NCBI GenBank assembly: GCA_964016885.1
Contig: OZ024755.1
Location: 31,682,001-31,746,000, forward strand
DNA: 64,000 nucleotides
Direction of reading: 5' to 3'
From: Eledone cirrhosa
Taxonomy: Eukaryota
Numbering within the stretch: position 1 is the first letter of the stretch; the number at the start of each line of letters is the position of its first letter. Below are positions 1 through 60,960 of this stretch, one piece after another. The position numbers were made by a program, and so were the translations under genes. The notes beneath the pieces were generated by a model. That model was given only the letters and a program-made list of their open reading frames with translations. It was not told the DNA's origin and ran no database searches.

Positions 1-25
1 TGGCATGCCTTCGTCAGATAAAATA
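1..25 (-). ncRNA. Partial type I hammerhead ribozyme (family C), cut by window edge
   Basis: Minus strand reads tattttat-CTGACGA-aggcatgcca. The motif and its flank (to ~65) match the complete copy at 48338-48402. Confidence 0.6.
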
Positions 26-104
26 CAATATATAAACAGTTTTATAAATAATTTTGACGTACCATAATATAAGCGACCATTAAATTAGGAGGCTGCCTTG
101 GTAG

Positions 105-143
<39 letters not shown>

Positions 144-285
144 GTATGTATATATATATAATTGGTGTTGGATGCTTGAAGCGTCCGTTTGCGGTAGGCC
201 GTTTGAGCACTCGATGCTCTCATAGAGCAGAGTATGATATCACAGAAAATAAAAGAATCAGTATTGTGACGAATGGAATTTATTG

Positions 286-381
286 GACATATTACAATCG
301 TTTCTCTGGCAACCAGCTCGCGGCACGATCGATGTGATGATCGAACCTGACTCAGAAAATCGTAAGGTCCTCAGATACGTC
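286..381 (-). ncRNA. Type I hammerhead ribozyme motif with long stem II (family D)
   Basis: Minus strand: gacgtat-CTGAGGA-[63 nt, partly self-pairing]-GAAA-cgattg-TA-atatgtc. Stem I is 7 bp with one G-U; stem III is near-palindromic. Confidence 0.65.
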
Positions 382-759
382 TTGATTCTACGAAGCAAAT
401 TTTCCTATATATATATATATGTGTATATATATGTATAAATATATATATATGTATGTGTATATATATATTCAGGTTTGAGGTTCACCACTGGATAGAGCTG
501 GTCAATTCTTCCTTCCCCCTTCTTCTCTCTTCTTCCTTTCTTTCTTTCTTTTTTCTTGTGGCATGAGATTGAACGCTAACTTATGTTCCCATCCCTTTCT
601 GTTTTCCTTTATCTGACCGGTAGTAGCACACTGTAAGCTTTAGCCACGTCACTCGAGGGCGACCGGCAAAGGTAGAAGGTGCTGAATAGCGGTCGCCCTC
701 TGGTCCTCAATTTTCAGCCCCATGGATTTCATCTATTACATTCACGTATTATATTTCGA

Positions 760-817
760 ATACCTGATGATATCACCGGATTCATACGGAACCCAGTCAT
801 TGAAATGATCATAGTAT
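760..817 (+). ncRNA. Type I hammerhead ribozyme motif (family B)
   Basis: atac-CTGATGA-tatcaccggattcatacggaacccagtcatt-GAAA-tgatca-TA-gtat. Stem III is palindromic. It lies in a ~280 bp unit that also occurs, inverted, at ~49490-49712. Confidence 0.65.
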
Positions 818-883
818 AACAAACCTTTCAAGGATTTACACAAATCCAGCCTCCTGTCATTTCATTATATATATATATATATA

Positions 884-4635: not shown

Positions 4636-5822
4636 AATCCATGGGCAGCACGGCATCTCTCCACTTGTCATGGTCCTTCGTCATCTCCTCCGTGAGCTTC
4701 AGCGATCTGAGGTCCGCTCTCACCACCTCCGCCCATATTTTTCATGGTCTTCCTCTACTGCGTCTTCCTTCTACTGGGATTTCTTTACCCAGCGGTCATC
4801 CTCCATGCGCATCACATGTCCATATCATCTCAGTCTTCTCTCCTGCACACTATAACTTATCCCTGTTATACAGTTTCTCTCTCAACTCATCCATGCTTGC
4901 TCGTTCACATACATTGACATTACTCATCCAACAGAGCATGCTTGCTTCATTTCTCTCCAGCCGTAGAATATCCTCTGCAGCTGCTGCCCATGTCTCACTA
5001 TCGTGCAGCATCGTGTCTCACACAGGCATCATATAACCGGCCTTTCAACAGAGGAAGCATCTCCCTAAACTTCTTCCAACCCATCCTTATTCTAGATACT
5101 ATGGCCTCGGAACACCCCCCTCCCATGCTAATCTGATCACCTAGGTACCAGAAGCTTTCAACCACTTCTATAGAACCTACCTGCATTTGGAAAATGTGTC
5201 TATCACTACTTCTACTGTCAAATTTCCCTGTACATTACTGCGTATGTAGTTTTCCCTACCTGTTAGTTTGCCTGCTATCCCACTACATCTCTTGTGTACC
5301 CAAGATCTGCATCGTGTACATTTTATAGAATTTATGCCAGTTCCTTTTCTACATATTGAACATGGCCATTTCCCAGATGGAATCAGTTTTGTCCTCTCTT
5401 CTACTTATCAACATTTTTGTTTTAGCTAGGTTCACTATCGGGCCTCTTGATTCCAACTGTTGTTTCCATAGCCAAAATTTATTTTCTAGCTCCTCTGCTG
5501 ATTCTGCGATAAGAACCAGATCATCAGCATAGATAAGTTCCCATGGACAGCCAGTCTTAAACTCCTCTGTTGTGGCTTGGAGGACTATAATGAACAAGAG
5601 CGGGCTGAGGACTGAACCCTGATCTACTCCTACTTGTATCTGGAATTCCTCACTAAACTCCATTCCTACTCTCACTTTACTGACAGCACATCTGTACAAA
5701 GCTTGCACTGTCCTCACAAGCCATTCTTCAATACCTAGTTTCCTTTGGGACCACCAGATGACAGATCGGGGTACCCTATCAAAGGCCTACTATAGGTCAC
5801 AAAAGCTATGTACAGTGGCTTA
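4636..5822 (-). mobile_element. Degenerate RTE LINE, 3' half
   Basis: Frameshifted RT fragments: GVDQGSVLSPLLF, YADDLVL, FWYLG, GWKKFRE. Confidence 0.9.
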
Positions 5823-6417
5823 TATGTATCTCATCGTCATCGTTTAACGTCTATCTTCCATGCTAGCATGGGTTAGACGAGTTTGTTCCATTTGATGCGG
5901 GAATGGTTGGGAGACCGTGACTCGCTCGTATTTATTTAGGCATTGTAAAGTCCAGTTACTGTAGGTTCACCATAGCGAACATTCGATGTGTAGTTTCCAG
6001 TAGGTATATTGTACTAAGCAGAGTGTAATACTAATAATAATAAAAAGCACAAAGTATTAGATCTTCATTACATTTATTGAGGTGTGATGTGTGTTTCACG
6101 ATCTCTTCATTATAATTCTTCCCCTCCCCTATCCCACATACCCAAACATTTCTTCTCACAAAACCACCAATCAAAATGAAGTAAAATTAACCACCATAAA
6201 TGAATGAGAACTGATATGTACTTTTTCAAAGCTGTATAGGAATTTTTGTCATTGCCATAACAGAAATCTAACGAGCTTTCGATTCCAGAGTTAAACCCAA
6301 TCAATACAGATCGAACCATGAACCAATCGATTGCGAAACGTGCATCACATCTCAATAAAAATCTAAGACCTCGTCCTTTTAATCATTATTAGTGAGTGAG
6401 TGTGTGTGTGTGTGTGT

Positions 6418-7797
6418 CATCAAGGTATTTGAGAGGGTGGTGAGATTACGAATAACTCACTTTCTTGAAAGCAACAGGCTGCTGAACTCCAACCTATATG
6501 GGCTCCGTAATGGAAGGGACTGCCTAACGCAGCTCCTGCATCACTTGGATGACATTTTGAGAGCTTTAGGAGAGGGCTCCAACACTGTCATCTACTTTGA
6601 TTTCAGCAAGGCCTTTGACAGGGTTGATCACAAGATTCTATTGAAAACACTATCCAACATTGGTGTCTCTGGAAAGTTACTACAGTAGATCAAGTGTTTC
6701 CTGACAGAGCCCAACATGTTGTAGTTGGAGTTAAATCAAGCCCAGCCCAAATCAGTAGTGATGTCTCGCAAGGCACTGTGTTGGGCCCACTTCTTTTTAT
6801 CATCTACATTAATGATGTTACTGACATCATCAAGCACAGCAACATAAGAATCTTTGCAGATGATTCCAAGCTCCAGAAGGTCATCAATGGAGTGGGTGAC
6901 CAGACATGCCTTCAATCAGACCTACTGGCTGTTATCCAATGGACAGAAAAGAAAAGTATGTTGCTGAACGAGGATAAATTTGAGTTAATCCACTTTGGAA
7001 AAGAGGATACCCTGAAACTACCATATTTCCTTCAGGTGAAACTCTCATGGCATCCAACATCAGAGACTTTGGGAGTAGTTGTGGGCAATAACATAAGCTG
7101 GGCCACTCATAAACAGCAAAGTTGAAATGGTTTGCCGAATGTTTTCCTGGATTCTCAGAACCTTCCAGTCGAGAGACATCCACACTGTTATCCTTCTCTT
7201 CTCCACTTTTGCCTGACCCCACCTTGAATACTGTTGTCCACTGTGGTCTCCCCACACGAAGAAACAGTATCATGAAGATTGAACCACCTCAAAGGTCAAT
7301 CACAAAAAAGATAGATGGCATGTCAGGCCTTGACTATTGGAGTCGACTAGAAAAGCTTAATCTTTATTCTCTCCAATGTTCGAGTGAGCGCTACATTATC
7401 TGCATGATGTGGAAAATATTCCATCAGCATTGCCCAAATGATGTTATCACCTTTAAGGTACACCTAAGGCTTAGTCCCCATGCTATCAGCCCACAACAAA
7501 AATCACACTCGCATCTCATAACAATATGGTACAATTATTCCACCTCAATTGGCCCCACTCTCTTTAACATTACACCAAAACACATCAAAACAGAAACAGA
7601 ACCCAATAAAGTTCAAGAAGTCTTTGGACAAATTCCTTCAAGAAATTCCAGATAAACCTCCTACACCCGGGTATGTCTCCGTAAACAATAACTCTCTACT
7701 TGAGTGGCCCATGGTGTCCAAATCCTGATTTGAAAGATTTCGCCAGGTGGTGCTATTAAGTTAGACACGGCCTGGGCCAATACTGGCCGAAACCTAT
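6418..7797 (+). mobile_element. Degenerate CR1/L2-group LINE, RT and 3' end
   Basis: Fragments DFSKAFDRVDH, QGTVLGPLLF, FADD and RLEKLNLYSL across frameshifts. Confidence 0.85.
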
Positions 7798-12122: not shown

Positions 12123-36063
<23,941 letters not shown>

Positions 36064-41901: not shown

Positions 41902-44840
41902 TTACATTGCAAATTCATTATCAGATTCAATGATCTTCTTAGGCCAGGATGCATGGTCACGTTTCATTCCAGCATTGATGTGTCCGGTTCTACTCGGTTC
42001 CAAGGGTCTATAAGGAACTGACGATCGGATTTCAGCAATCTGTTTCCTGCGGATCTCTTCCACTACCATACAAGTTGAACAAGCTTGTGTCCACAAGAGA
42101 ACACAGCAGAAGATGCAGAGCAAAGGACCACATAAGGCAAAATAATAACCCCAGTTCAAACTGACATGTGGCGCTGTATTAAGAATGACTCTGTTCATAA
42201 CTGGGAAGTCATCCCAGATGTCACCTTCTGTGTGAATTCCAGCAAACGCAACACCAAAAATTAGGGAAAGAGCTGAAAATATAATTAAAACAAAAAAATA
42301 AAGATGGTGAAGAAATGTGAAAAACATAAGTTGATTCTCAGACAAAGGAGATAGAGTGTCCATTGGTCTCTCTATTTCTGATACCCAGTTTACATGTAGC
42401 AGAGAAAACACTAAGTGTTCATGTAGCAGGCAAAACACCCACTGTACATGTAGCAGACAACATCTTGTACAATAATTATTCTAAATATTCAAAACAAAAT
42501 CCAATTCACTCACCTGAAAATGTGACAAATCCTGCTGAAGCAATTTCTCCAGTGACAGAACCATATTTCTGACATGCCAAAATAAATATCCCAACAGTAG
42601 ACATGGTTAAAGAAAACATACCAATGGAATACAATACTTGGCCAACATACAACATTTCTGCAAATAAAAGAACACATTTATTAACTCTTAAAATCCTCTA
42701 CCACATTCTTTAAAAGTACAAAACAGTTCTACGATTGCAACACACAAAAACCCAATCTTTTACATATTTTCACAACCTGTCTGCTAATAAACATTTGAAT
42801 TAATAAGCCTTCTTTTAGATATTTTCTACTAAAACATTAGATGATGTTAAGAGGTAATTGTAAAAGTACTTTCGTCACACCCTGTGGCTTTATTGACGAC
42901 TCTTCCCCTCTGTCTCTTCTTCGTCCACAATTACTCCATCTTTGAAGTGATTGACTGAGTCAACATGGAGTAAAGAGGACCCTTTCCTCTTGTCAACAAC
43001 TTTCCAACCCCCCTAGCATTGCTGCTACAATAAAATACACCCAGTACACTCTGTAAAGGGGTAGTGCTGGTACCACAATAAAATACACCCAGTACACTCT
43101 GTAAAGTGGTAGTGCTGCTACCACAATAAAATACACTCTGTAAAGGGGTAGTGCTGGTGTCATGATAAATACACCCAGTACACTCTGTAAAGTAGTAGTG
43201 CTGGTACCATGATAAAATACACCCAGTACACTCTGTAAAGTGATAGTGCTGGTGCTACAATAAAATACACCCAGTACACTCTGTAAAGGGGTAGTGCTGG
43301 TACCACAATAAAATACACCCAGTACACTCTGTAAAGTGATAGTGCTGGTGATATGATAAAATACCCCCAGTACACTCTGTAAAGTGGTAGTATTGGTGTC
43401 ATGATAAAATACATCCAGTACACTCTAAAGTGGTAGTGTTGATACTACAATAAAATACACCCAGTACACTCTGTAAAGGGGTAGTGCTGGTGCTACAATA
43501 AAATACACCCAGTACACTCTGTAAAGTGGTAGTGTTGGTGTCATGATAAAATACATCCAGTACACTCTGTAAAGTAGTAGTGATGGTACTATGATAAAAT
43601 ACACCCAGTACACTCTGTAAAGTGGTAGTGTTGGTGTCATGATAAAATACATCCAGTACACTCTGTAAAGTAGTAGTGATGGTACCATGATAAAATACAC
43701 CCAGTTCACTCCGTATCGTGGTAGTGCTGGTACCATGATAAAATACACCTAGTACACTCTGTAAAGTGGTAGTGTTGGTGTTAGCAAGGGTATCCAGTTG
43801 TAGAAAACATACCAAAACTGGTGAGGCCCCTGATCTGTCTTGGTCTGTGATGATTTCTCCAAATCATGCCAGCATGGATATCAGACATTAAATGATGACA
43901 ATGATGATGGTGGCGGTGCTGATGAAGGTGATGATGATGGTGGTGGTTGTTGTGGTGATGATGAGGGTGGTGGTGGTGATAATGATGGCAATGTGGATGA
44001 TGGTGATGATAATGATGATGGTGGTGGTGATGATGGAGGTGATGGTGATGACAATAGTGATGATGGTAACAATGATAATGATGGTAGTGGTGCTGATGAT
44101 GGTGGTAGTGGTGGTAATGGTGATGATGGTGGTGGTGGTGGTGGTGCTGATGGTGATTGTGGTGGTGTTGGTGGTGCTGATGCTGGTGATGGTGGTGGTG
44201 TTGGTGGCGGTGATGATGGTGGTGGTGGTGATGATGGTGGTGGTGTTGGTGGCAGTGGTGATGATGATGATAGTGGTGGTGGTGGTGGTGGTGGTGTTAT
44301 GTCTATTTTGCCAAAGTCTGCCACAAACCTACAATACTTACTTGGTAGAAGTAAGACAGGGGCAGTGTTCTCCAGGTGTACAAGAGATACTAGTTTATAC
44401 TTCAACTGAGTGAGGGTTTTAAAGTCAGCATATGGATACTCCAAGTAAAAGAGACCAACGTTGACTGCAGGAACATATAATTGATTGAATGTTTTGCCAA
44501 CGTCGCTATTCTGGCGTTTGTAACGCAGAAATCTTCGAGATCTGACCAGAGCCTGCATCACGTTGTACTGGCCTAAAGAGCGTTTCTTTCTACCGTTCAC
44601 TGAAAGAGTAGTGGTTGCTTCAGTTGATGGTGTTGAACTACCGGTAGGTGTAGTGGCACTGGTGCTTGTTGTTGGGATGTCAATCGTGATCGGTTCTATA
44701 GGGTTGATAGTCTGGAAGTCAACCACAAACCAGTAGGGTAAGAAGAGAGCTGTTAAAGAGAGGATCATCGTAACTAACATGAGGTTAGACAGGAGGAAGA
44801 GACGGCTATTTTGAGGCCAGTATTTCACAACACCCCTCAT
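41902..44840 (-). CDS. PMP22/EMP/claudin-superfamily four-TM protein, about 337 aa. Exons: 44840-44342, 42657-42514, 42272-41902
   Basis: GT-AG phase-1 introns join in frame. An in-frame TGA lies upstream of the ATG, with a splice acceptor at 44868-44870. Four hydrophobic segments; TM1 is followed by PYW, then later NVGLF; LNWGYYFA precedes TM4. Confidence 0.8.
43020..44298 (+). repeat. 48 bp minisatellite (~16 copies), then SINE/RTE-type tail, then expanded (GAT/GGT)n repeat
   Basis: The array runs into gttagcaagggtatccagttgtagaaa...gacattaaatgatga, then the trinucleotide tract. All of it is intronic in the tetraspan gene. Confidence 0.9.
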
Positions 44841-44930
44841 GACGGAAGTTCAGTCAAAAAACAACACCTGAAAGTAAATATATAAAAAAATATCTTCAAA
44901 TAAATGTAAAATGGAATGAGAGTTGGGTGG

Positions 44931-46262: not shown

Positions 46263-46693
46263 AGAGGTTTCCTAGTGCTCTTCGCGATACCGTTATCTTT
46301 TGCTCTGGTAACGGCTCAGTTGTCGCACCCCCCCCCCCCCCTTTGTAGTATAACTTGGTTTTTCTCCCTCTGTTTCTATATGTGTATACATGCATCTTCA
46401 TATAAGTGTGTCTGCGTGTGTGTGGGTATATATTTTTTTACCCCTAATTTTACGTAAGTGTGCGTCTATGTATATCTGATTCCGTGTGTACATGTATTTT
46501 TTCCGTTATTTTATTCCAACCAATCCCGCCGAGGTTAACTTTGCCTTTCATCCTTACGGGGTCGATAAAATAAAGTACCAGTAATGTACTGGGTAATTGA
46601 TGGCCTTATGCCAAAAGTAGAAACAGTTATTTTATTCCAACCTCACTTTCACTTATAATAGATTTTAATTTAATATCTTATATCCAAATAAAG

Positions 46694-46766
46694 ATTCCTT
46701 CTGATGAGCGATATCAGGCGTTTCTGTTAGAATCATCTAACTTCGTGAAACCTTGGGTAATGGAAT
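46694..46766 (+). ncRNA. Type I hammerhead ribozyme motif (family A)
   Basis: attcctt-CTGATGA-gcga...tcgt-GAAA-cc-ttg-gg-TA-atggaat. Confidence 0.7.
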
Positions 46767-47103
46767 AATTATATTGTGTTGTTTATTAGATAATTAAATT
46801 ATATATATATAGTCAGTAGGCACCTCTTAACCAAATATACACCCCAATCCACTACCCCTACCCTATCCTCTCTCTGTAAAGTTCGTACCACAACATCCAA
46901 TCCAAATAAATGAGATAATGAGATCGAGATCGTGTAGGTGTCACGACAAAAAAACACACAGTTCGGATCTAGCTGTCGAAACGGCCGCAGCTCAGCCGTC
47001 ACGGTCCTGACTCTTTTCCTATTACCCACTCTACTACCCTAAGTATTGAGTACTCTGGTGCGTTATGGTCCACCTGGTATCTTACCACACCCTCTTTGTT
47101 ATA

Positions 47104-47158
<55 letters not shown>

Positions 47159-47374: not shown

Positions 47375-48337
47375 ATATATATATATATAGTACGCAGGTG
47401 TATTGTGGAGGAAAAAAAATGTCATTTCCGTCAGTTATGGAGGACATTTGAAATAGTTGAACTGATTAATAATATAAAGGGAGGGGCAAAAGTTAGGTGT
47501 TTATTGCAACATGAATATAACTTGTGTAGATTTTATAGAGATATTTCAGATTTAAAACTATATAGTATGACACACATACCTTCTTGGTCATACTAACAGG
47601 CCATTGTGTGTGTGTGTATATGTGTATGTGTGAGAGAGATTAAAACACGAGTTAAATATAAAAAACTTAAATATATAAACAACAACAAAACAATGATAAT
47701 AACGTGAAATCTGAAGATTTTTACCTTAATGATTAATACGTATGTTTAAATTGAAAACAAGAGTCCTTGTATGATGTAGTAGTTTAGTTAGAAGTCACCT
47801 GTCCAGTAAGTTACAGGTGCGCTGCAGTCACTTTAACTCATCAACAGCTAAGGGAAGTAACTTAACACTTATCAAACAGGTAGTATTTCAGCTTAATCTT
47901 ACAAACTTGAACGAGCTTAAATGTCTGCTGGGTATTATAGATTTCGCAGTTAGCCAGTCCACAATATATATATATAGAGAGAGAGAGAGAGTCGGGACCA
48001 GACGGCTGAACTCGTGCCGTTGCAACAGCTAGTACCATAAAAGATGAAGTTAGAAATAGCACGGAAAATATATTTAAGGGTCTGTTTTTTTTTTTATCCT
48101 TTCTTTGATTCGTCAAAGTGACATTATTGAAAACATGAGAGGAACAATTCTTTAAAAAAAAAAGTTGTATAATGTATATAAAGTATATAAAGTATATATA
48201 TATATATGCAAAAGTTCTATTTAAATTGTTGGGATACAACAAGCAAACACTTTTATAACTGATATAAAGCACTCGACAAGAAATTGGAGTAAATATACGA
48301 TATTAACAAATGGAAAATATATTTATAAAACCATATC

Positions 48338-48402
48338 TATTTTATTATACATATTTCAAGGATACCATGTTAAATTATGGTATGCTTTCATCAGACAAAA
48401 TA
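48338..48402 (-). ncRNA. Type I hammerhead ribozyme motif (family C)
   Basis: Minus strand: tattttgt-CTGATGA-aag c ataccat aatttaac atggtat c ctt-GAAA-tatgta-TA-ataaaata. Stem I is 8 bp; stem II is 3+7 bp. Confidence 0.78.
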
Positions 48403-48700
48403 CAATATATACCAGTTTTATAAATAAATTTTAACATACCCTTTCAAAATGCAACCGTTACTTTTGGAAGACATCAGGATATATATATATATATTGTTAT
48501 ACTTTGGGAGGGTCATATTGCCATAAAGAAACACACGCACCAGTTGGTTTCACTCCAATTTATTATAAATTTCCGGTTGGTTGGTTGGTTGGTTCCACAA
48601 CCGGACGGTTGTTCATATATTGTCAAAGTTCTTTCATCACACATTCTGTGACCTCTTCAATGACTGGGGATTCTTCTCCTTTGTTCTGTCCTACGCCATC

Positions 48701-48731
<31 letters not shown>

Positions 48732-48875
48732 GTGTGTGTGTGTGTTTAATTATATTGGAATTTACCAATATATCTCCCGTTAAAGATTATAGAAGCTCAA
48801 TGCTAATCAGTATCCTTGGTCAAGCAACCTCCGTGGATTATGTTATGGCATGAACTGCAGAGCTCAATATTTTAA

Positions 48876-49044
48876 TAACAATGAATAACCAGTTTTACAA
48901 GATTTACATTATTTGACCCTACGATCGTTTCAATGTAGGAGGGTGGGCTGTGCCTCAATCGTTGCCCACTGAATCTATTGAAGCACACACCACCCTCCTG
49001 CATTGAAACGATCGTAGTGTAACTTTTAACTGATTATTCATTGT

Positions 49045-49047
<3 letters not shown>
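48876..49047. repeat. Imperfect palindrome carrying hammerhead 3' half on both arms
   Basis: ctacgatcgtttcaatgtaggagggtgg ... ccaccctcctgcattgaaacgatcgtag, with outer taacaatgaataa/ttattcattgtta. Confidence 0.8.
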
Positions 49048-49134
<87 letters not shown>

Positions 49135-49481
49135 GGAGTCACATGGCTTAGTGGTTAGAGCATTGGCCTTGCAATCGAAAGGTTGTGAGTTCAATTCTCA
49201 GACTGGGTGATGTGTTGTTTCCTTGAGTAGGACACTTTATTTCACATTGCTCCAGTTTACTCAGCTGTAGAAATGAGATGATAGGGACTGGGGTCCATAT
49301 CATTCCACTGCAAAGTGGTCGTGGAGGTGCCACGGCAAAAAAGCACCCAGCACTCACTGTAAATGAGGTTGGTGTTAGGAAGGGCATCCAGCTGTAGAAA
49401 TCAAGCCAGAGTCAGTTCTCGTCCCACCCTTGCAAGCAGGGAAAAGCAGACGTAAAATGAAATGATGATGATGATGAAATG
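49135..49481 (+). mobile_element. Full-length tRNA-derived SINE with RTE-type 3' tail
   Basis: A-box tggcttagtgg, B-box gagttcaattc, tail ending gacgtaaaa(tga)n. Near-identical inverted copy at 52491-52819. Confidence 0.85.
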
Positions 49482-49548
49482 ATATATATATATAAATGAA
49501 ATAAAATAACAGGAGGCTGGACTGGTGTAAATCCTTGAAAGGTTTATT

Positions 49549-49606
49549 ATACTATGATCATTTCAATGACCGGGTTCCATATGAATCCGGTGATATCATC
49601 AGGTAT
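49549..49606 (-). ncRNA. Type I hammerhead ribozyme motif (family B, second copy)
   Basis: Minus strand: atac-CTGATGA-tatcaccggattcatatggaacccggtcatt-GAAA-tgatca-TA-gtat. Confidence 0.68.
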
Positions 49607-49806
49607 TGGAATATAACAAAGGAATATGTAAAAAACCATGGGTCCGAAAAATCAGAGACAGAGAGGACGACTGACCAACTAGCTTCTCGGCCAGTCACCC
49701 TCAAAGGCAATATATATATATTTTGGTATAACAAAGAGGGTGTGATAAGATACCAAGTGGACCATAACGCACCAGAGTACTCAATACTTAGGGTAGTAGA
49801 GTGGGT

Positions 49807-49933
49807 AATAGGAAAAGAGTCAGGACCCCGATGGCTGAGCTCCGGCCGTTTTGACAGTTAGATCCAAACTGTTCGGATCTAATTGTTGAATCGGGCGGAG
49901 CTCAGCTGTTGGGGTCCTGACTCTTTTCCTATC
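49807..49933. repeat. Imperfect palindrome of a short dispersed element (single arm also at ~46962-47105)
   Basis: ataggaaaagagtcaggacccc ... ggggtcctgactcttttcctat, axis at ~49870. Confidence 0.85.
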
Positions 49934-50321: not shown

Positions 50322-51254
50322 TTAGGTAAGGCAGGTCTTCTCTATTACTGTGTAGCGCCAAAGATCTCGGTCCAGTGACATTGTCTTGGTGAGGTGAAAG
50401 TGTGTGAGGTCGGAGTTTATCAGCTCATCCCAGGTTTTTCTGGGTCTGCCTACTCCGTGGCTACCGTCTATCTTTATTGCCCTGCACTTTGTTATACAAC
50501 TATCGTCCTTCATGCGCATCACGTGACCATACCAACGTAGCCTTCTCTCGAGTAAACAACATCTGATCCCTCTTATTTCTAATTTTTCCCTTAGTTCGTT
50601 TATGCTTTGCCGTTCACGTATATTACTATTACACATCCAGCGGAGCATGCAAGCTTCGTTCCTCTCTAGTCTGCGTCTATCCTCTGCACACAATGCCCAG
50701 GTCTTGCCATGCAACATTGCTCGTCATATGCAGGCATCATACAGCCTGCCTTTCATTTTTAGGGAGAACCCTTTAGCGGCTAATAGTGGTATAAGTTCTC
50801 TGAACTTTTTCCATCCAGTTCTGACTCTAGCTACTGTACTTTCAGAGCACCCTCCCCCACTGCTGATTTTGTCACCCAGGTAACGGAAGCTGTCCACTAT
50901 TTCTATAGAACCATCTGTGCAATTGAAAGAGCTAGTATTCTGTGGGCACTTGCTGCTACTTATTGCACCAGAGCACCGGCCACATATAAAATCTATGTTC
51001 TTAGTTAGCTTACCTGTGATCCCACTACATCTTTTATGCACCCATACTTTGCATTTGGGACATAAAATGGAGTTTCTACCTACTCCTTTCCTACACACTG
51101 AGCATGGCCATTTCCCGGATGGGACCGGTGCCCTATTTTCCTTCCTACAAACTAGAACTTTAGTCTTAAACAGGTTAATTTTAAGGCCTTTTGATTCTAG
51201 GCCATGCTTCCATGTTTGGAATTTCTTCTCTAGTTCGGCCATTGATTCAGCTAT
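50322..51254 (-). mobile_element. RTE LINE 3' part, lightly decayed
   Basis: Two long ORFs in different frames: Cys-rich finger, FRYLGD, GWKKFRE, ERRLRWYGHVMRM, GRPRKTW. Confidence 0.9.
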
Positions 51255-52490
51255 ATATATATATATATATCATCATCGATTAACGTCCATCTTCCACGCT
51301 AGCAAGGGTTAGATGGGTTTGTCCCATTTTGAGGCAAGTTGTATCGGGTGACCGTGTCTCGCTCATATAGGGGTGTTTCTGGCTGGATGTCCTTCTTAAT
51401 GCCAACCACATTTACAGTGTGGGCTGGGTGCTTTATATATAAAGATATATAGATATAGAGAGAGAGAATAAGAAAATGCAAAGTAGTTGCAGATGTTAAC
51501 ACATTTGAAAACATTTTACTTCTCAATGTGCTCAGTAAATCTCTCATCTAGCTGCTTGGCATCGACATATGAAACTTCATATATTATTCAATATATTTTT
51601 ATGACAACATACTGAGATAAACATCAGTGGAATATAGATTATCAATTTATATTTAATCCATTCTGTGTAAAGAACAGACAAGACTTTCCATTACTATTGG
51701 GGCTTTCACTAAGCCTTGTAGTATCAGCTAATATTATAATAGGATTAAGCCAGTGTTAATTACAGGAGATTTGTGTGTGTGTATATATATACAGATACAT
51801 AATTATATATATATACACACATATATATAGAGAGAGATACATATATACAGATATATGTATATATATACATACATCAACATCATCATCATTTTACATCCGC
51901 TTCTCCCTGCTTGCAAGTTACATATATATATACATATATATATATATACCAGTGGCGAAGGGTAAGAAGATTAACCTGGGCATGCAGTCCAATCGCCATG
52001 GCGGAAAGTGGGGCTCTGCAGCCTTAACCCCCCCAAATGACCCTCCCGGTCAAAGCCACATGTAGTGTTATCTAGTGTGTGTGTGTGTGTGTTATCTTTT
52101 TTTGTGTCTACGATTTAGTAAGCAGCCAAAATTCTGCTTCCTTCAACCGACGCAATTGATCAACTCAAGATTCTGTAACACATGCACTGCATGCACGGAC
52201 CCTTCGCCCCTGATATATATATCTTATATATATATATATGTGCTTATATATTTATGTTTATATATAAATGTGTGCGTATATACATACATATATATATATA
52301 AGCACATGCATATATACCCACACATACACACATACACACATATATATCATTGTTTCAGCTTGTGACACACAAGCTGAAACCACTGTGTCGGTCAGGATTT
52401 TACACATCTCTGTACCTCCGACTGCAATGGTCACCTCTGTCTCAGCACTGCAGACTCTATATATACATTATATGCACACAAACACACATA

Positions 52491-52819
52491 TCATCATTTT
52501 ATGTCCGCCTCTTCCTGCTTGCAAGGGTGGAACGGGAACTGATTCTGGCTTGATTTCTACAGCTGGATGCCCTTCCTAACACCAACCTCATTTACAGTGA
52601 GTGCTGGGTGCTTTTTTGCCGTGGCACCTCCACGACCACTTTGCAGTGGAATGATAGGGACCCCAGTCCCTATCATCTCATTTCTACAGCTGAGTAAGCT
52701 GGAGCAATGTGAAATAAAGTGTCTTGTTCAAGGAAACAACACATCACCCGGTCTGAGAATTGAACTCACAACCTTTCGATTGCAAGGCCAATGCTCTAAC
52801 CACTAAGCCATGTGCCTCC
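52491..52819 (-). mobile_element. Full-length tRNA-derived SINE
   Basis: Reverse complement of 49135-49481 with few differences; a third, internally deleted copy is at 54104-54385. Confidence 0.85.
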
Positions 52820-52927
52820 TCATATATATACATATGAAGTATTTCCGTAGGAATGGTAAAGGAAAGGAGAGTGCTCTATGTAAGCTACAGAGCTATTTAA
52901 TTATGTAATAAACAACATAAGACAATT

Positions 52928-53002
52928 ATTCCATTTACCAAAGGTTTCACGAAGACAGACAAGCCCAACAGAGACATCTGAAATCGCTCATCAGAATGAA
53001 AA
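52928..53002 (-). ncRNA. Type I hammerhead ribozyme motif (family A), left arm of palindrome
   Basis: Exact reverse complement of 53031-53105. Confidence 0.75.
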
Positions 53003-53030
53003 TTTAATATGGATGTAAGAGCATATTAAA

Positions 53031-53105
53031 TTTTCATTCTGATGAGCGATTTCAGATGTCTCTGTTGGGCTTGTCTGTCTTCGTGAAACCTTTGGTAAAT
53101 GGAAT
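53031..53105 (+). ncRNA. Type I hammerhead ribozyme motif (family A), right arm of palindrome
   Basis: tttcatt-CTGATGA-gcga ttt caga...tctg tct tcgt-GAAA-cc-ttt-gg-TA-aatggaa. GUA cleavage triplet; predicted cut after 53097. Confidence 0.78.
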
Positions 53106-53376
53106 AATTGTCTTATGTTGTTTATTACATAATTAAATAGCTCTGTAACCTAGATAGAGCACTCTCTTTTCCTTTATCCTTCCTACGGAAATACTTCATA
53201 TATTACCATCATTTAACGTCTATCTTCCTCGCTAGCATGGGTTAGACGGGAGTTGTCCCACTTGAGGCAAGGTTGGTCGGATGACCGTGTCTCGCTCGTA
53301 TAGGAGTAACTGGCAGGTTTTCTACAGCTGGATGCCCTTCCAAACACCAACCACATTTATAGAGAGAGAGAGAGAT

Positions 53377-53814: not shown

Positions 53815-54385
53815 CATCATCATTTTACGTCCGCTTTTCTCTGCTTGCAAGGGTGGGATGGGTCCTATTCAGCACAGCGTCTCTCCACTTGTCACAGTCC
53901 TTCGTCATCTCCTCCGTGAGCTTCAGTGATCTGGGGTCTGCTCTCACCACCTCTGCCCATGTTTTTTGTGGTCTTCCTCTACTGGCACTTCTTTACCCAG
54001 CGGTCATCCTCCATGCGCATCACATGTCCATACCATCTCAGTCTTCTCTCCCGCTCACTACAACTTATCCCTCTTATACAGTTTCTCTCTCAACTATATG
54101 TGTATCATCATCATCATCATTTTACGTCCGCTTTTCCCTGCTTGCAAGGGTGGGACGGGAACAGACTCTGGCTTGATTTCTACAGCTGGATGCCCTTCCT
54201 AACACCAACCTCATTTACAGTGAGTGCTGGGTGCTTTTTTACCGTGGCACCTCCACGACCACTCTACAGCTGAGTAAACTGGAGCAATGTGAAATAAAGT
54301 GTCTTGCTCAAGGAAACAACACATCACCCAGTCTGAGAATTGAACTCACAACCTTTCGATTGCAAGGCCAATGCTCTAACCACTA
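53815..54385 (-). mobile_element. RTE 3' fragment plus adjacent SINE
   Basis: Same sequences as 26686-26950 and 52491-52819. Confidence 0.8.
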
Positions 54386-56832: not shown

Positions 56833-59337
56833 TCATCTGCGAAGTCTTAGAAAAAAAGCATGTTTACACTCTCTTGAGTCTGCAGGGTAATATTTATCAT
56901 AAAAGTCCAATATAAACTGCTCTGGTTTGAAACCAAACTTTTGATATAGCAACATGGCTGGATTGTTGGCAGAAACATGAAGTGTGACATCTTTGCCCAT
57001 ACAAGTCTGTATAAGATGGTAAAGTAAAAAGGAAGCAATACCTGAACGACACCATTCAGGGTGGGTAAAAAGGAAGGAAATATATGCCTCATTATATTTC
57101 ACATCTGGTACCATGAAGGCGAATCCTATAACAATCTTTCGGTATAAGACGACACAACTGAAGTCAGGGTATTGTAGGCACTCCGATAGATCAATGCCAG
57201 GCCAGAAAAACTGTTGACAAAGAGAATTCACTGATGGAATGTGTTGTGGACGGACGTAACAATAATCTATTGAATAAGTTGGAGGAGGTTTCCACAAAGG
57301 ATCATTTCGGTGTGGATACGCTCGGATTTCTTCTAAGAGACGCATTTTCAAAGGTCTGGTTTCATAGTCCCTCATGATGAAAGGTTTAAGCCACCGTGTG
57401 GTGTATGGACTACAAATACACTGTAACTGATCATCATCTGTACCAATAAGCCTGTTAATAAATAAAGGTTGTTTCTTGTTTGATTTGGGGGGATAGATTT
57501 CAGGGTGGGTCAGGAATCTACTGAGTACCCTGACATCAGCAGGATGGCAATATGATGAAGGAACACCATGAATCTGGCTATAGTCTTTGTCCACTGAGGA
57601 AGAGTTCAACATACCCAAATGATAATTAACTTCAGCATCTAAGTCAAACAGGGGTATACCTTGTTCTCTCTTCACTTGCCGTACCAGTAATTTGCGGCGA
57701 AACCTATGAAATTCAACTGGAAGTGTTGAGTTCTCGGCAATGTGGTTAAGTCGCATAAGAAGTTTCTTCTCATGGTACAAACTAACAGGAACAAACTTAA
57801 TCGTTTTGGGCTCAGGAATAATTTCTTCTACCTCTTCCTCCTCCTCCTCTTCTTCTTCATCTTTCTCCGATTCTTCTGTTTCATTTGATTTCTCTTCTTG
57901 ATCTTCACTAACTTCCTTTTTCACTGAATCTTGAGCAAGTTCTTCTGATTCCTTCATCTCTTCCTGTCGTTCAAATTTTGGAAGAAATTCATTCTGAGTA
58001 CTTAAGACTTCTCTTTTGGGGACTTTACCCAATGGAGGATTGGTAGTCTTAAAATCAAAGTTAAAATATTTGTTGCTGTTATTATTATTATTGATGGTTG
58101 TGAGTTCATTATTAGAAGAGATCTTTTCATCTGTCACTGACAAAGATGGAATAGAAAGCTGAACAGAGGAATCAGAGGTTCTTGTGAAAAGAGGTCCATT
58201 AGACTTATCATCTAGAACAGCAAACATCTCTTGCAAAGAAGGCGACAGTCGGGGAGAGGTCGGACTAGGGGAACAAGCTGGTATAGGTGAGAATGTTCCA
58301 ATATCAATTTCCATATCACTATCAGACTCATCTTTTAAGAACGGCGGAAATGGCATACTTATTTGTGATTCCAGTGATTCGGATTTTGTGGGTTCTGGGA
58401 GAGAAGGTTCTTCTTCGTCTTGTTCCATAAAATTCCCAAGTTCACCATATGCTTTGAAATCAAACGTGCAATGAGAATAGGAGGAAGATTCCGATTTAAT
58501 ATCAATGGGTTTCAATAAAGAATCTAGCTTGGGTTGTATATTAGTCGTTAAGAGATCATTACACGTAGACACAGCAAAAGTAGTTGTGGTAGTAATATCA
58601 TTTATGTTGGATCTACTGTTATTAACACTGGTCAAACTGGTGGAAGAAACCTTTGTTGGGTTTTCCACACTCGCGGTTTTTCGTTTCGTGAATGCAACAC
58701 CTTTTTCTTTCCGTTCTATCGCCACTTCCAGAGAAGACTTCTTCTGTCGGCCTCGTAAACCAGACGGGAGTATATTAACATCAACTGGAGGAGTCTTGGA
58801 GCGTTTGCGGAAGTTTTTCCACGAAGATTCTAAATTCATAAACGACATTTTACCTTCAGCTAATTTCCACCAGCCAGATTCACCTATCTCCTTTGATCCA
58901 GAAATGAAATAATTAGGACAGCCTGTTGACAGGATACCCGCAACAGTACCATGCCATAAATTCGTCTTTTTTCGGTTTCCAAACAGAAATTTCCAATGTT
59001 TGTCAATAAAAGCACATATGTGATCTTTCCAACGATAATAACCCATTTTACCTGTCCCGGTAAACTGTAAATTATATAAGGCCAGTGAAACTACATGAAT
59101 CCACTGGAGTTTCACTCTCTGACATGATTCTTGGCTGTCTGGAGAACAATTTGAGCAGGTTAATTCGAAGAAGATATCTCCCAATAACTCGGAAGGCCGA
59201 CCGTTCTGGAGACAGGTCGGGTGGAAAAGAAGACTGCACTTGACACATGTTAACATTTCTTCGTTTGGATTGGCATCGCCTCCACAATAACATTGATTAT
59301 GTCTCAGAGAAGGAGATTTCGAAACCCCTTCCATCAT
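56833..59337 (-). CDS. KAT14: KAT14/CSRP2BP (ATAC2) lysine acetyltransferase, 834 aa, single coding exon
   Basis: N-terminal PHD-like finger (CYC..C..C..FH..C..LLGDIFF..C..C) followed by WIHVVSLALYNL; FRRKLLVRQ..R..G.PLFDLD; C-terminal SPYT.R.LKPFI.RD, FFWPGIDLSECLQYPDF and GNAT fold (YISFLFTHPEW, TLHVSANNPAMLLYQKFGFK). Confidence 0.95.
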   Translation of the reverse strand: MMEGVSKSPSLRHNQCYCGGDANPNEEMLTCVKCSLLFHPTCLQNGRPSELLGDIFFELTCSNCSPDSQESCQRVKLQWIHVVSLALYNLQFTGTGKMGYYRWKDHICAFIDKHWKFLFGNRKKTNLWHGTVAGILSTGCPNYFISGSKEIGESGWWKLAEGKMSFMNLESSWKNFRKRSKTPPVDVNILPSGLRGRQKKSSLEVAIERKEKGVAFTKRKTASVENPTKVSSTSLTSVNNSRSNINDITTTTTFAVSTCNDLLTTNIQPKLDSLLKPIDIKSESSSYSHCTFDFKAYGELGNFMEQDEEEPSLPEPTKSESLESQISMPFPPFLKDESDSDMEIDIGTFSPIPACSPSPTSPRLSPSLQEMFAVLDDKSNGPLFTRTSDSSVQLSIPSLSVTDEKISSNNELTTINNNNNSNKYFNFDFKTTNPPLGKVPKREVLSTQNEFLPKFERQEEMKESEELAQDSVKKEVSEDQEEKSNETEESEKDEEEEEEEEEVEEIIPEPKTIKFVPVSLYHEKKLLMRLNHIAENSTLPVEFHRFRRKLLVRQVKREQGIPLFDLDAEVNYHLGMLNSSSVDKDYSQIHGVPSSYCHPADVRVLSRFLTHPEIYPPKSNKKQPLFINRLIGTDDDQLQCICSPYTTRWLKPFIMRDYETRPLKMRLLEEIRAYPHRNDPLWKPPPTYSIDYCYVRPQHIPSVNSLCQQFFWPGIDLSECLQYPDFSCVVLYRKIVIGFAFMVPDVKYNEAYISFLFTHPEWCRSGIASFLLYHLIQTCMGKDVTLHVSANNPAMLLYQKFGFKPEQFILDFYDKYYPADSRECKHAFFLRLRR

Positions 59338-60960
59338 ATTGTAAACTAAAATACGTTGAAGTAATCGTTAAATTTCCCAAAGTTCCTTCAGAACAAAACA
59401 TTAATATTGGCTAACTACCACACAGCTTTCTTCATTTCTATCCCTTTTTACGCTGCCCACACATTTATACAAAGAAATAGCATTAGATATACTTAAGAAT
59501 TGTGCCATGTATATTAGAATTCATTCCAAATTCATACTGGGTTGTTTATATTTATATATATATATATATATATATATCAGTGGACGAAGAAGTGTGTATG
59601 TGTAGATATACTAATCTATATATGTATGTGTAGATATATTGGTGTATATATATATTTATCAGAGTATATATAGATATATCCGTGTATATATAGATATATT
59701 AATGTATATATAGATATATCAGTGTATATGTAGTTATATCGAGCACATGTTGTGTAAATACATTTGACACAATTACCGGCAGTGTCCTGGCGATAAAACA
59801 GATTACTAAGGAAAGATAACTTTGAGCGGCGGTAAATATAATTTGCATTCGTAGCTGAACGGAATACATTTGTGAAATAACGCGATTTATTAATGAATTT
59901 ACATTTTTTCATGCTGTAACATTCGAGACATTGGTAGGAAGCAAAACAGCCAACATCGAGGGTCCTGTCGTTGTTGGCAGATAACTATACTGAAATATTA
60001 GGTAATGCTCCTGATAAGAATGCTTAGTTATTCTATCACCTTAGCCACGCCATCACCCGTGACAATATCGTGTCTTACCTTTCCCCAAAAAATATTTAGA
60101 AAACAACACTAACATTTCCTGTTGTTATGTGCAAGTCGGTGGGCATGTCTGCTTTTCTCTATTGGTATGTTACGTTTGTAAGTGATAATAAACATTATTT
60201 AATTAACTAGAATTATTATCTTCTTTAGTAAATTATATCATTAAAAAAATCCTGACCAATAAAAAAAAAAAAAATTCGTTTTTGATATTTTCGCTTCGAG
60301 TCCGGAAATTGAGTTTCATGGACAAAGGGACATAACTGTGTTATCTCTGCTATTGTAATGTCTGCTATTTGGTCTGTGTGACAATAAAGCCTCGGGGGAA
60401 ATATATTGGCCCTTTTTCATACCAAATCAGCTGGTACGACACTTGATTCTGTCATTAAATAACTGTTTATTTTAAAAGGTACATATTTATCAAAAAGACT
60501 TCCCGTCATAAATTATGTTCTTCCAAACTGCAGATGTAACATGAGAAAGTTATAGGCAGTTTCTTTAGAAAAGTGACGATGGAAAAGTCAAACTACCAAA
60601 CTTAATTCAGTTGTAAAAGAAACAATTCAATGAAAAGGAAAAAAAAGAGAGAAGACATATATAGTGTCCATAGCAGACTTACACACTACATTACACTACA
60701 GTACACACTGCATTACACAATACAGGGGATGTTGGTGTATCTAAACACAGAAGACATACACACTACATTACATACTATATTACACACTACATTACATACT
60801 ATATTACACACTACGTTACACACTACATTACATACATATTACACTACATTACACTCTGTAAAATACTGTGATAGCGTGGCTAAGGTGTAAGAATAGCTAG
60901 ACACCCTCATGAGCATTACCTGATATTTCATTAAACTGAGTTACTAATAATGACAAAACC

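Follow-up and report, generated by a model that had tools for sequence, protein, structure and literature searches.

Type I hammerheads are dispersed by the thousand in individual animal genomes and have been tied to the ends of Penelope-like elements (PLEs); in the metazoan motifs described, helix III is short and palindromic and helix II is longer than canonical (Cervera and de la Pena, 2014; PMC4209133). Among those tested in that study, monomers showed no activity and dimers weak activity, and the dimer model of PLE-type hammerheads is summarized elsewhere (PMC6765202). PLEs are also marked by 5' truncation, by inverted truncated copies, of which head-to-head pairs are a hallmark, and by insertion into (TA)n, the target of nearly all families of the Hydra clade (Craig et al., 2021; PMC8557442). 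In that clade, cleavage falls some 29-152 nt from the element end in 23 of the 24 3' hammerheads listed, a count that omits one 5' copy and one inverted copy in the same table (PMC8557442). Retrozymes, by the accounts cited here, consist of tandem units that are expressed as circles (PMC7229834, PMC7761336), and the in vivo role of PLE hammerheads is treated as still open (PMC8557442, PMC7761336).

We analyzed a 64-kb stretch of Eledone cirrhosa DNA, hereafter the window, in which a preliminary description had proposed a hammerhead with an intact core, an 8-bp stem I, a stem II of 3+7 bp, and a stem III one change from the palindrome UACGUA. This anatomy is confirmed for the motif, here called C1 (Table 1). 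The conserved core (CUGANGA ... GAAA ... UH) is present and the helices measure 8 bp, 3+7 bp, and 2-3 bp, with a C·C mismatch between the two parts of helix II. The helix III segment UAUGUA is self-complementary via two U·G pairs, and lies as close to UAUAUA as to UACGUA. Anatomy and the shuffle controls given below together uphold the call, and on its sequence C1 is a genuine type I hammerhead motif whose self-cleavage is a prediction. Hammerhead cleavage 3' of A17 leaves a 2',3'-cyclic phosphate and a 5'-OH. The triplet at this site, AUA, is a natural one, and was the slowest among four tested in one viroid hammerhead, according to the comparison reported in PMC1636495.

Table 1. Positions of hammerhead-bearing elements, genes, and other features in the window, counted from its first letter.
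Feature	Position	Strand	Details
Family C, copy C1, entire element	48208..48479	minus	~272 bp; (TA)n tract at each end
C1 type I hammerhead	48402-48338	minus	core and three helices, open at helix I
C1 helix I	48402-48395 with 48345-48338	minus	8 bp, one G·U
C1 extended helix I	~48425/48321	minus	>20 bp, bulged, encloses entire ribozyme
C1 core	48394-48388	minus	CUGAUGA
C1 helix II	48387-48358	minus	3 bp, C·C (48384/48361), 7 bp; 8-nt loop
C1 GAAA	48357-48354	minus	
C1 helix III	48354-48347	minus	self-complementary 8-nt strand containing UAUGUA
C1 U16.1; A17	48347; 48346	minus	predicted cleavage after A48346, triplet AUA
Family C, copy C2, 5' part	1..103	minus	core CUGACGA at 17-11; ends at window edge
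Family B, copy B1	655..865	plus	core 764-770; helix III palindrome UGAUCA; predicted cleavage after 813
Family B, copy B2	49495..49709	minus	core at 49602; predicted cleavage after 49553, with (TA)n 58 nt further on
Family B GC-rich hairpin	655-700; 49702-49663	plus; minus	~60-110 nt upstream of hammerhead
Family A, copy 1	46667..46799	plus	core at 46701; decayed helix I; helix III of odd length; (TA)n 40 nt past the predicted cleavage site
Family A inverted pair	52832..53201	minus; plus	head-to-head, 5'-truncated; cores 52994 (minus), 53039 (plus)
Family D inverted pair	48874..49048		head-to-head; hammerhead 3' halves only; GAAA, palindrome CGAUCG, UA
Family E candidate (weaker call)	161..405	minus	core CUGAGGA at 374; 7-bp helix I; predicted cleavage after 293
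Short repeat family without hammerhead core	46958-47120; 49710-49872; 49808-49932; 47988-48032		ends at (TA)n
Decayed Penelope-like element	22725..24214	minus	RT then GIY-YIG, frameshifted
Four-membrane-span gene, coding exons	44840-~44343; 42673-42512; 42285-41905	minus	
Acceptor-like CAG of this gene	ends at 44868	minus	
Donor-like sites	48439; 47798; 47579	minus	
Candidate first exon or regulatory region	47900-47720	minus	donor-like 47798 inside, 47579 nearby
Thr-rich loop protein segment	44394-44840	minus	RKKR furin-like site
Non-LTR retrotransposon RT fragments	815-2161; 5349-5786; 50322-51269; 6383-7655	plus; minus; minus; plus	
Helitron Rep/PIF1 helicase-like fragments	29106-32055	minus	
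tRNA-like Rfam matches and 342-bp repeat	49142-49205; 52753-52810; 54104-54385	plus; minus; 	E 0.03, 0.11
Intronless 844-codon frame	56833-59367	minus	N-terminal PHD-like finger, C-terminal GNAT domain

A motif of this kind might arise by chance in AT-rich, hairpin-rich DNA, and two results lean that way. No hammerhead model appears among the Rfam (release 15) matches, whether the window is searched at E<=1 or 48250-48480 at E<=10; only low-complexity miRNA-type and other sub-threshold matches occur. Folding scores are likewise modest: the stability of the 69-nt motif is reached by 27 of 200 shuffles and that of a 106-nt form by 4 of 200, the opposite strand folds equally well, and folding energy alone is weak evidence for the hammerhead. 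In the 106-nt context, the active fold lies 5.3 kcal/mol above the minimum, with pair probabilities of 0.04-0.05 for the active register of helix I and none for helix III, under a model that omits the tertiary energy of the core. Descriptor searches nevertheless argue strongly against chance. Chunk-wise dinucleotide shuffles yielded no site in 300 for a strict descriptor, which found C1 alone in the window and is post hoc, as it was fitted to C1 itself, and again none in 300 for a medium descriptor, which found two. Two loose descriptors found five and six real sites, each with a single match in 8 of 300 shuffles, and a sequence-only pattern gave seven matches against 0.57 expected, one of which was discarded for lack of pairing. 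Helices I and II are formed by none of the 173 prokaryotic and viral matches listed to a similar sequence pattern (at least 120 prokaryote loci, with full flanks for 80, and 53 viral-contig loci), and an exact 25-letter pattern had no match in metagenome contigs. Given the shuffles, these pattern matches, and a conserved second copy, a chance origin is effectively refuted, and we assign it practically no weight.

That second copy, C2, had been placed at positions 1-25, with CTGACGA for CTGATGA at the free core position and further A/G differences in the stems. All of this is borne out, and the homology reaches wider than first described, to about position 103. The copy begins at a (TA)n tract, with about 87 nt to its core against 84 nt in C1, and identity between the two declines from 21/25 in the ribozyme (1-25) and 34/40 along the 5' strand of the extended helix I to 22/40 further upstream. 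The four ribozyme differences are at core position 7 and at three A/G changes opposite U. All four are tolerated by the structure, which has a chance of about 0.002-0.04 under simple substitution models, in a test that takes the unseen partner strand of C2 to equal that of C1 and does not amount to covariation. This pattern suggests selection on the ribozyme in the lineage of the element, not necessarily on the C1 copy.

Set beside the PLE hammerheads illustrated for Drosophila willistoni and Aedes aegypti, C1 has the same type I topology and CUGANGA/GAAA core, a palindromic helix III of 2-3 pairs, a long helix II, flanks rich in U (5') and in AU (3'), and an occurrence as dispersed single copies and close opposite-strand pairs (PMC4209133). 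The D. willistoni motif also has the GAAA-U(4-nt palindrome)A-UA layout of C1 and an A-U pair at the base of helix II (PMC4209133), and the palindrome of the metazoan PLE consensus, at positions 15.2-16.2 and loop 3, is found in C1. Unlike that consensus, as given, C1 has neither an extra nucleotide after A9 nor a G10.1-C11.1 pair; unlike the motifs shown with it, C1 has a helix II of 11 positions with an internal C·C, an 8-bp helix I extendable to >20 bp, and no linked ORF (PMC4209133). Because A-U directly follows A9 in its best register, we class C1 as a variant resembling the PLE min-HHR consensus and not as a member of it. The Hydra-clade elements tabulated in PMC8557442 likewise carry a sense-strand hammerhead near the 3' end (138 nt in C1 vs 29-152 nt) and target (TA)n. 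An octopus, Octopus bimaculoides, hosts one of them, Hydra-1_Obim, whose helix II (7 bp, 8-nt loop) is that of the 7-bp part and loop of C1; the sequence of C1 differs, and in Hydra elements helix III mostly consists of a stem of 4 or 3 bp around a center of 1-3 nt, as in family A here, whereas family C has an even 8-nt strand (PMC8557442).

We consider C1 to be, most likely, the heavily 5'-truncated 3' end (pseudo-LTR region) of a PLE, inserted into a (TA)n tract. Such tracts border C1 on either side and C2 at the end that falls within the window, and in C1 the 5' tract lies 84 nt from the core and the 3' tract 138 nt from the cleavage site. A PLE origin is favored by the inverted truncated pairs in sibling families A and D, by the fall in C1/C2 identity away from the ribozyme combined with the tolerated differences, and by the decayed RT and GIY-YIG element in the same window, the RT of which is 49% identical to a 595-aa protein, P0001. 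Weighing against it are the near-equal distances from start to core in C1 and C2, unlike random truncation; the two departures from the consensus around A9; and the decayed element itself, at whose end no hammerhead was found and which has no sequence link to family C. Nor is any RT or endonuclease ORF attached to family C in the window, although at the C1 locus the lack of RT and GIY-YIG frames is expected for a 272-bp truncated end. No partial tandem or inverted copy occurs at C1, and a hairpin at the 5' end of the family is not significant in C1 or C2. Database comparisons were negative: among metagenome contigs, the 266 pattern matches to P0001 included none that was confirmed; none of six 12-letter strings from families B, C, and D occurred in a published PLE consensus file, in which line breaks could mask matches; and no description of family C was found in the literature searched, which lay mostly outside subscription papers and repeat databases.

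Besides family C, the window contains no fewer than six remnants from other families that bear hammerheads. Two of these are head-to-head inverted pairs; the 180-nt arms of the family A pair are 97% complementary. The two family B copies have a common 3' end and unequal 5' extent, which likewise favors a PLE origin, and B1 has 52 nt from its cleavage site to (TA)n and a GC-rich hairpin upstream. Families B and C do not otherwise align, yet a C·C mismatch at the fourth pair of helix II is common to C1, B1, and B2. In the family E candidate, the 63-nt helix II region is poorly paired and 132 nt separate the cleavage site from (TA)n. Across the complete motifs, six of seven have a TA tract 40, 52, 58, 105, 132, or 138 nt after the cleavage site; the seventh, A3 of family A, scored 544 and ends some 105 nt on at a shorter TA run. 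The background of TA tracts is 0.143 per position, and these arguments from distance and from (TA)n draw on one window in which TA tracts cluster and the remnants were found via their hammerheads. Other sites were rejected as hammerheads, namely 13451 (plus), where helix III is unpaired; 3849 (plus), a plain hairpin without a core; and the remaining GAAA-palindrome matches, which have no core.

Several smaller observations concern these repeats. The family B hairpin has z-scores of -3.2 and -3.0, and its pairing is kept despite sequence change; B2 starts right at this hairpin. The palindromes of the family D and family A pairs are near-perfect and, if transcribed, would give long double-stranded RNA. 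A short repeat family without a hammerhead core also ends at (TA)n, and occurs once as an inverted pair.

Under the PLE reading, the C1 hammerhead would stem from a family of Penelope-like retroelements that bear it close to the 3' end. Tandem or multi-copy RNA of the parent element would bring two hammerheads together, the self-complementary helix III strands of which may then pair mutually, and cutting after the AUA triplet would release unit-length RNA for reverse transcription. Predicted self-duplex energies of helix III are -2.2 (family C), -7.2 (B), and -5.1 (A) kcal/mol; a C1-B2 hetero-dimer was rejected, the helix III strands not being complementary by sequence. Isolated C1, whose helix III has two A-U pairs and whose triplet is AUA, has no partner close by and would be expected to cut slowly or not at all.

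Alternatively, family C might be a short non-autonomous element of fixed length (a mini-PLE, a SINE-like element, or a monomeric non-LTR retrozyme), mobilized in trans by PLE proteins and possibly moved via a small circular RNA from hammerhead cleavage. The near-identical starting point of C1 and C2 would be explained in this way, and the type I hammerhead, the 272-bp length, and the low GC (0.24-0.29 in the scored parts) suit the metazoan non-LTR retrozymes described in PMC7229834, with unit sizes of 150-450 bp. Hammerheads with a 2-bp helix III can, moreover, cut as monomers, as reported for HHR_Amex2 of the axolotl (PMC7229834), and the long bulged helix I of C1 could support tertiary contacts. 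C1 is however a single unit with no tandem arrangement at its locus, unlike the retrozymes presented in that source; it shows no terminal redundancy, its score being equaled in 490 of 1000 shuffles, and no stable circular fold (z -0.47; 30 of 100 shuffles are equally stable), and its helices differ from the canonical 6 bp and 4 bp given for retrozyme hammerheads (PMC4209133). We therefore regard a non-autonomous element as rather unlikely, though deserving of some weight. Still less can be said for a role like that of HDV-like and twister ribozymes, in which the hammerhead would mark an RTE/LINE or tRNA-SINE at its 5' end. Such 5' ribozymes are among those described in PMC7761336, and B1 directly precedes an RTE-like RT frame (815-2161), but a (TA)n tract intervenes between the two, and the sequence after B2 and C1 is unrelated. 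We find this arrangement very improbable.

The preliminary description had also placed the hammerhead sense to a tetraspan gene and upstream of its acceptor at 44868. Strand and order are as stated: an acceptor-like CAG ends there, C1 lies 3.5 kb upstream on the same strand, and the homolog of the encoded protein has four hydrophobic segments. The best homologs are Octopus bimaculoides LOC106872157 and an Argonauta protein, with identities of 62.5% and 57% in the first coding exon and of 90% and 82% in the last. Pfam returned no significant family for the gene; the homolog resembles the claudin/PMP22/clarin superfamily in its features (0.89, which is a lead only) and in its predicted structure (TM 0.5-0.6). 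The first loop of the encoded protein is long and Thr-rich, and an RKKR furin-like site is kept in the Octopus homolog. As the conserved ATG at 44840 sits 28 nt past the acceptor-like CAG, an upstream non-coding exon is likely. Could C1 then be a host-adopted ribozyme that regulates this claudin-like gene by cutting its pre-mRNA, within a first intron, or an upstream transcript? Beyond strand and position, the fully intact core would fit such a role, as would a donor-like G/GUAUGU at 48439, 45 nt before the core, which is kept in C2 as G/GUACGU. Donor-like sites occur on both sides of C1, though, and those at 47798 and 47579, between C1 and the acceptor, mean that the first exon may lie downstream of the ribozyme. 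C1 is also repetitive, a second copy lying 48 kb from it; further hammerhead remnants surround the gene on both strands; and the energetic cost of the active fold, with a monomeric helix III of no predicted stability, tells against cleavage in a host transcript. With at least seven hammerhead-bearing insertions in both orientations within 64 kb, the picture suggests debris of mobile elements and not a device particular to this gene. Host use is thus very unlikely in our judgment, and under the PLE reading the position of C1 near the gene would be incidental. Downstream of C1, at 47900-47720, a unique-looking segment with an inverted pair of E-box-like hexamers is a candidate for the first exon of the gene or for a regulatory region.

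As a further PLE-type hammerhead, C1 adds little, since such motifs are reported by the thousands in animal genomes (PMC4209133) and one octopus PLE hammerhead, Hydra-1_Obim, is already among those published (PMC8557442). It would carry greater weight if the variant cuts as a monomer, or if the density seen here, about one hammerhead-bearing insertion per 9 kb, is general in cephalopods, given that the giant squid annotation contains no more than 235 Rfam hammerheads (PMC6962438). Several short families with differing helix III palindromes also offer a simple means of testing the dimer model. A bolder proposal, which we hold to be a long shot, is that octopods harbor a very dense population of short, (TA)n-targeted, Rfam-invisible elements with hammerheads, among which family C is non-autonomous, of fixed length, and cuts as a monomer through docking of the C·C on the bulged helix I. 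If the first part were true, some hundred thousand hammerhead elements would be expected, were about one per 9 kb to hold genome-wide. If the second were, host pre-mRNAs would be severed by copies in sense orientation within introns, and the C·C-helix I docking would constitute a new tertiary contact, based on a mismatch common to family B.

The window holds other mobile sequences and one further gene-like frame. Its non-LTR RT fragments are presumably RTE-like and CR1/L2-like, and that at 815-2161 contains an assembly gap; we likewise assume the assignment of the fragments at 29106-32055 to the Helitron Rep/PIF1 helicase family. The 342-bp repeat with tRNA-like matches is probably a tRNA-derived SINE. 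The single-exon frame at 56833-59367, which we take to look like KAT14/CSRP2BP, is possibly a retrocopy.
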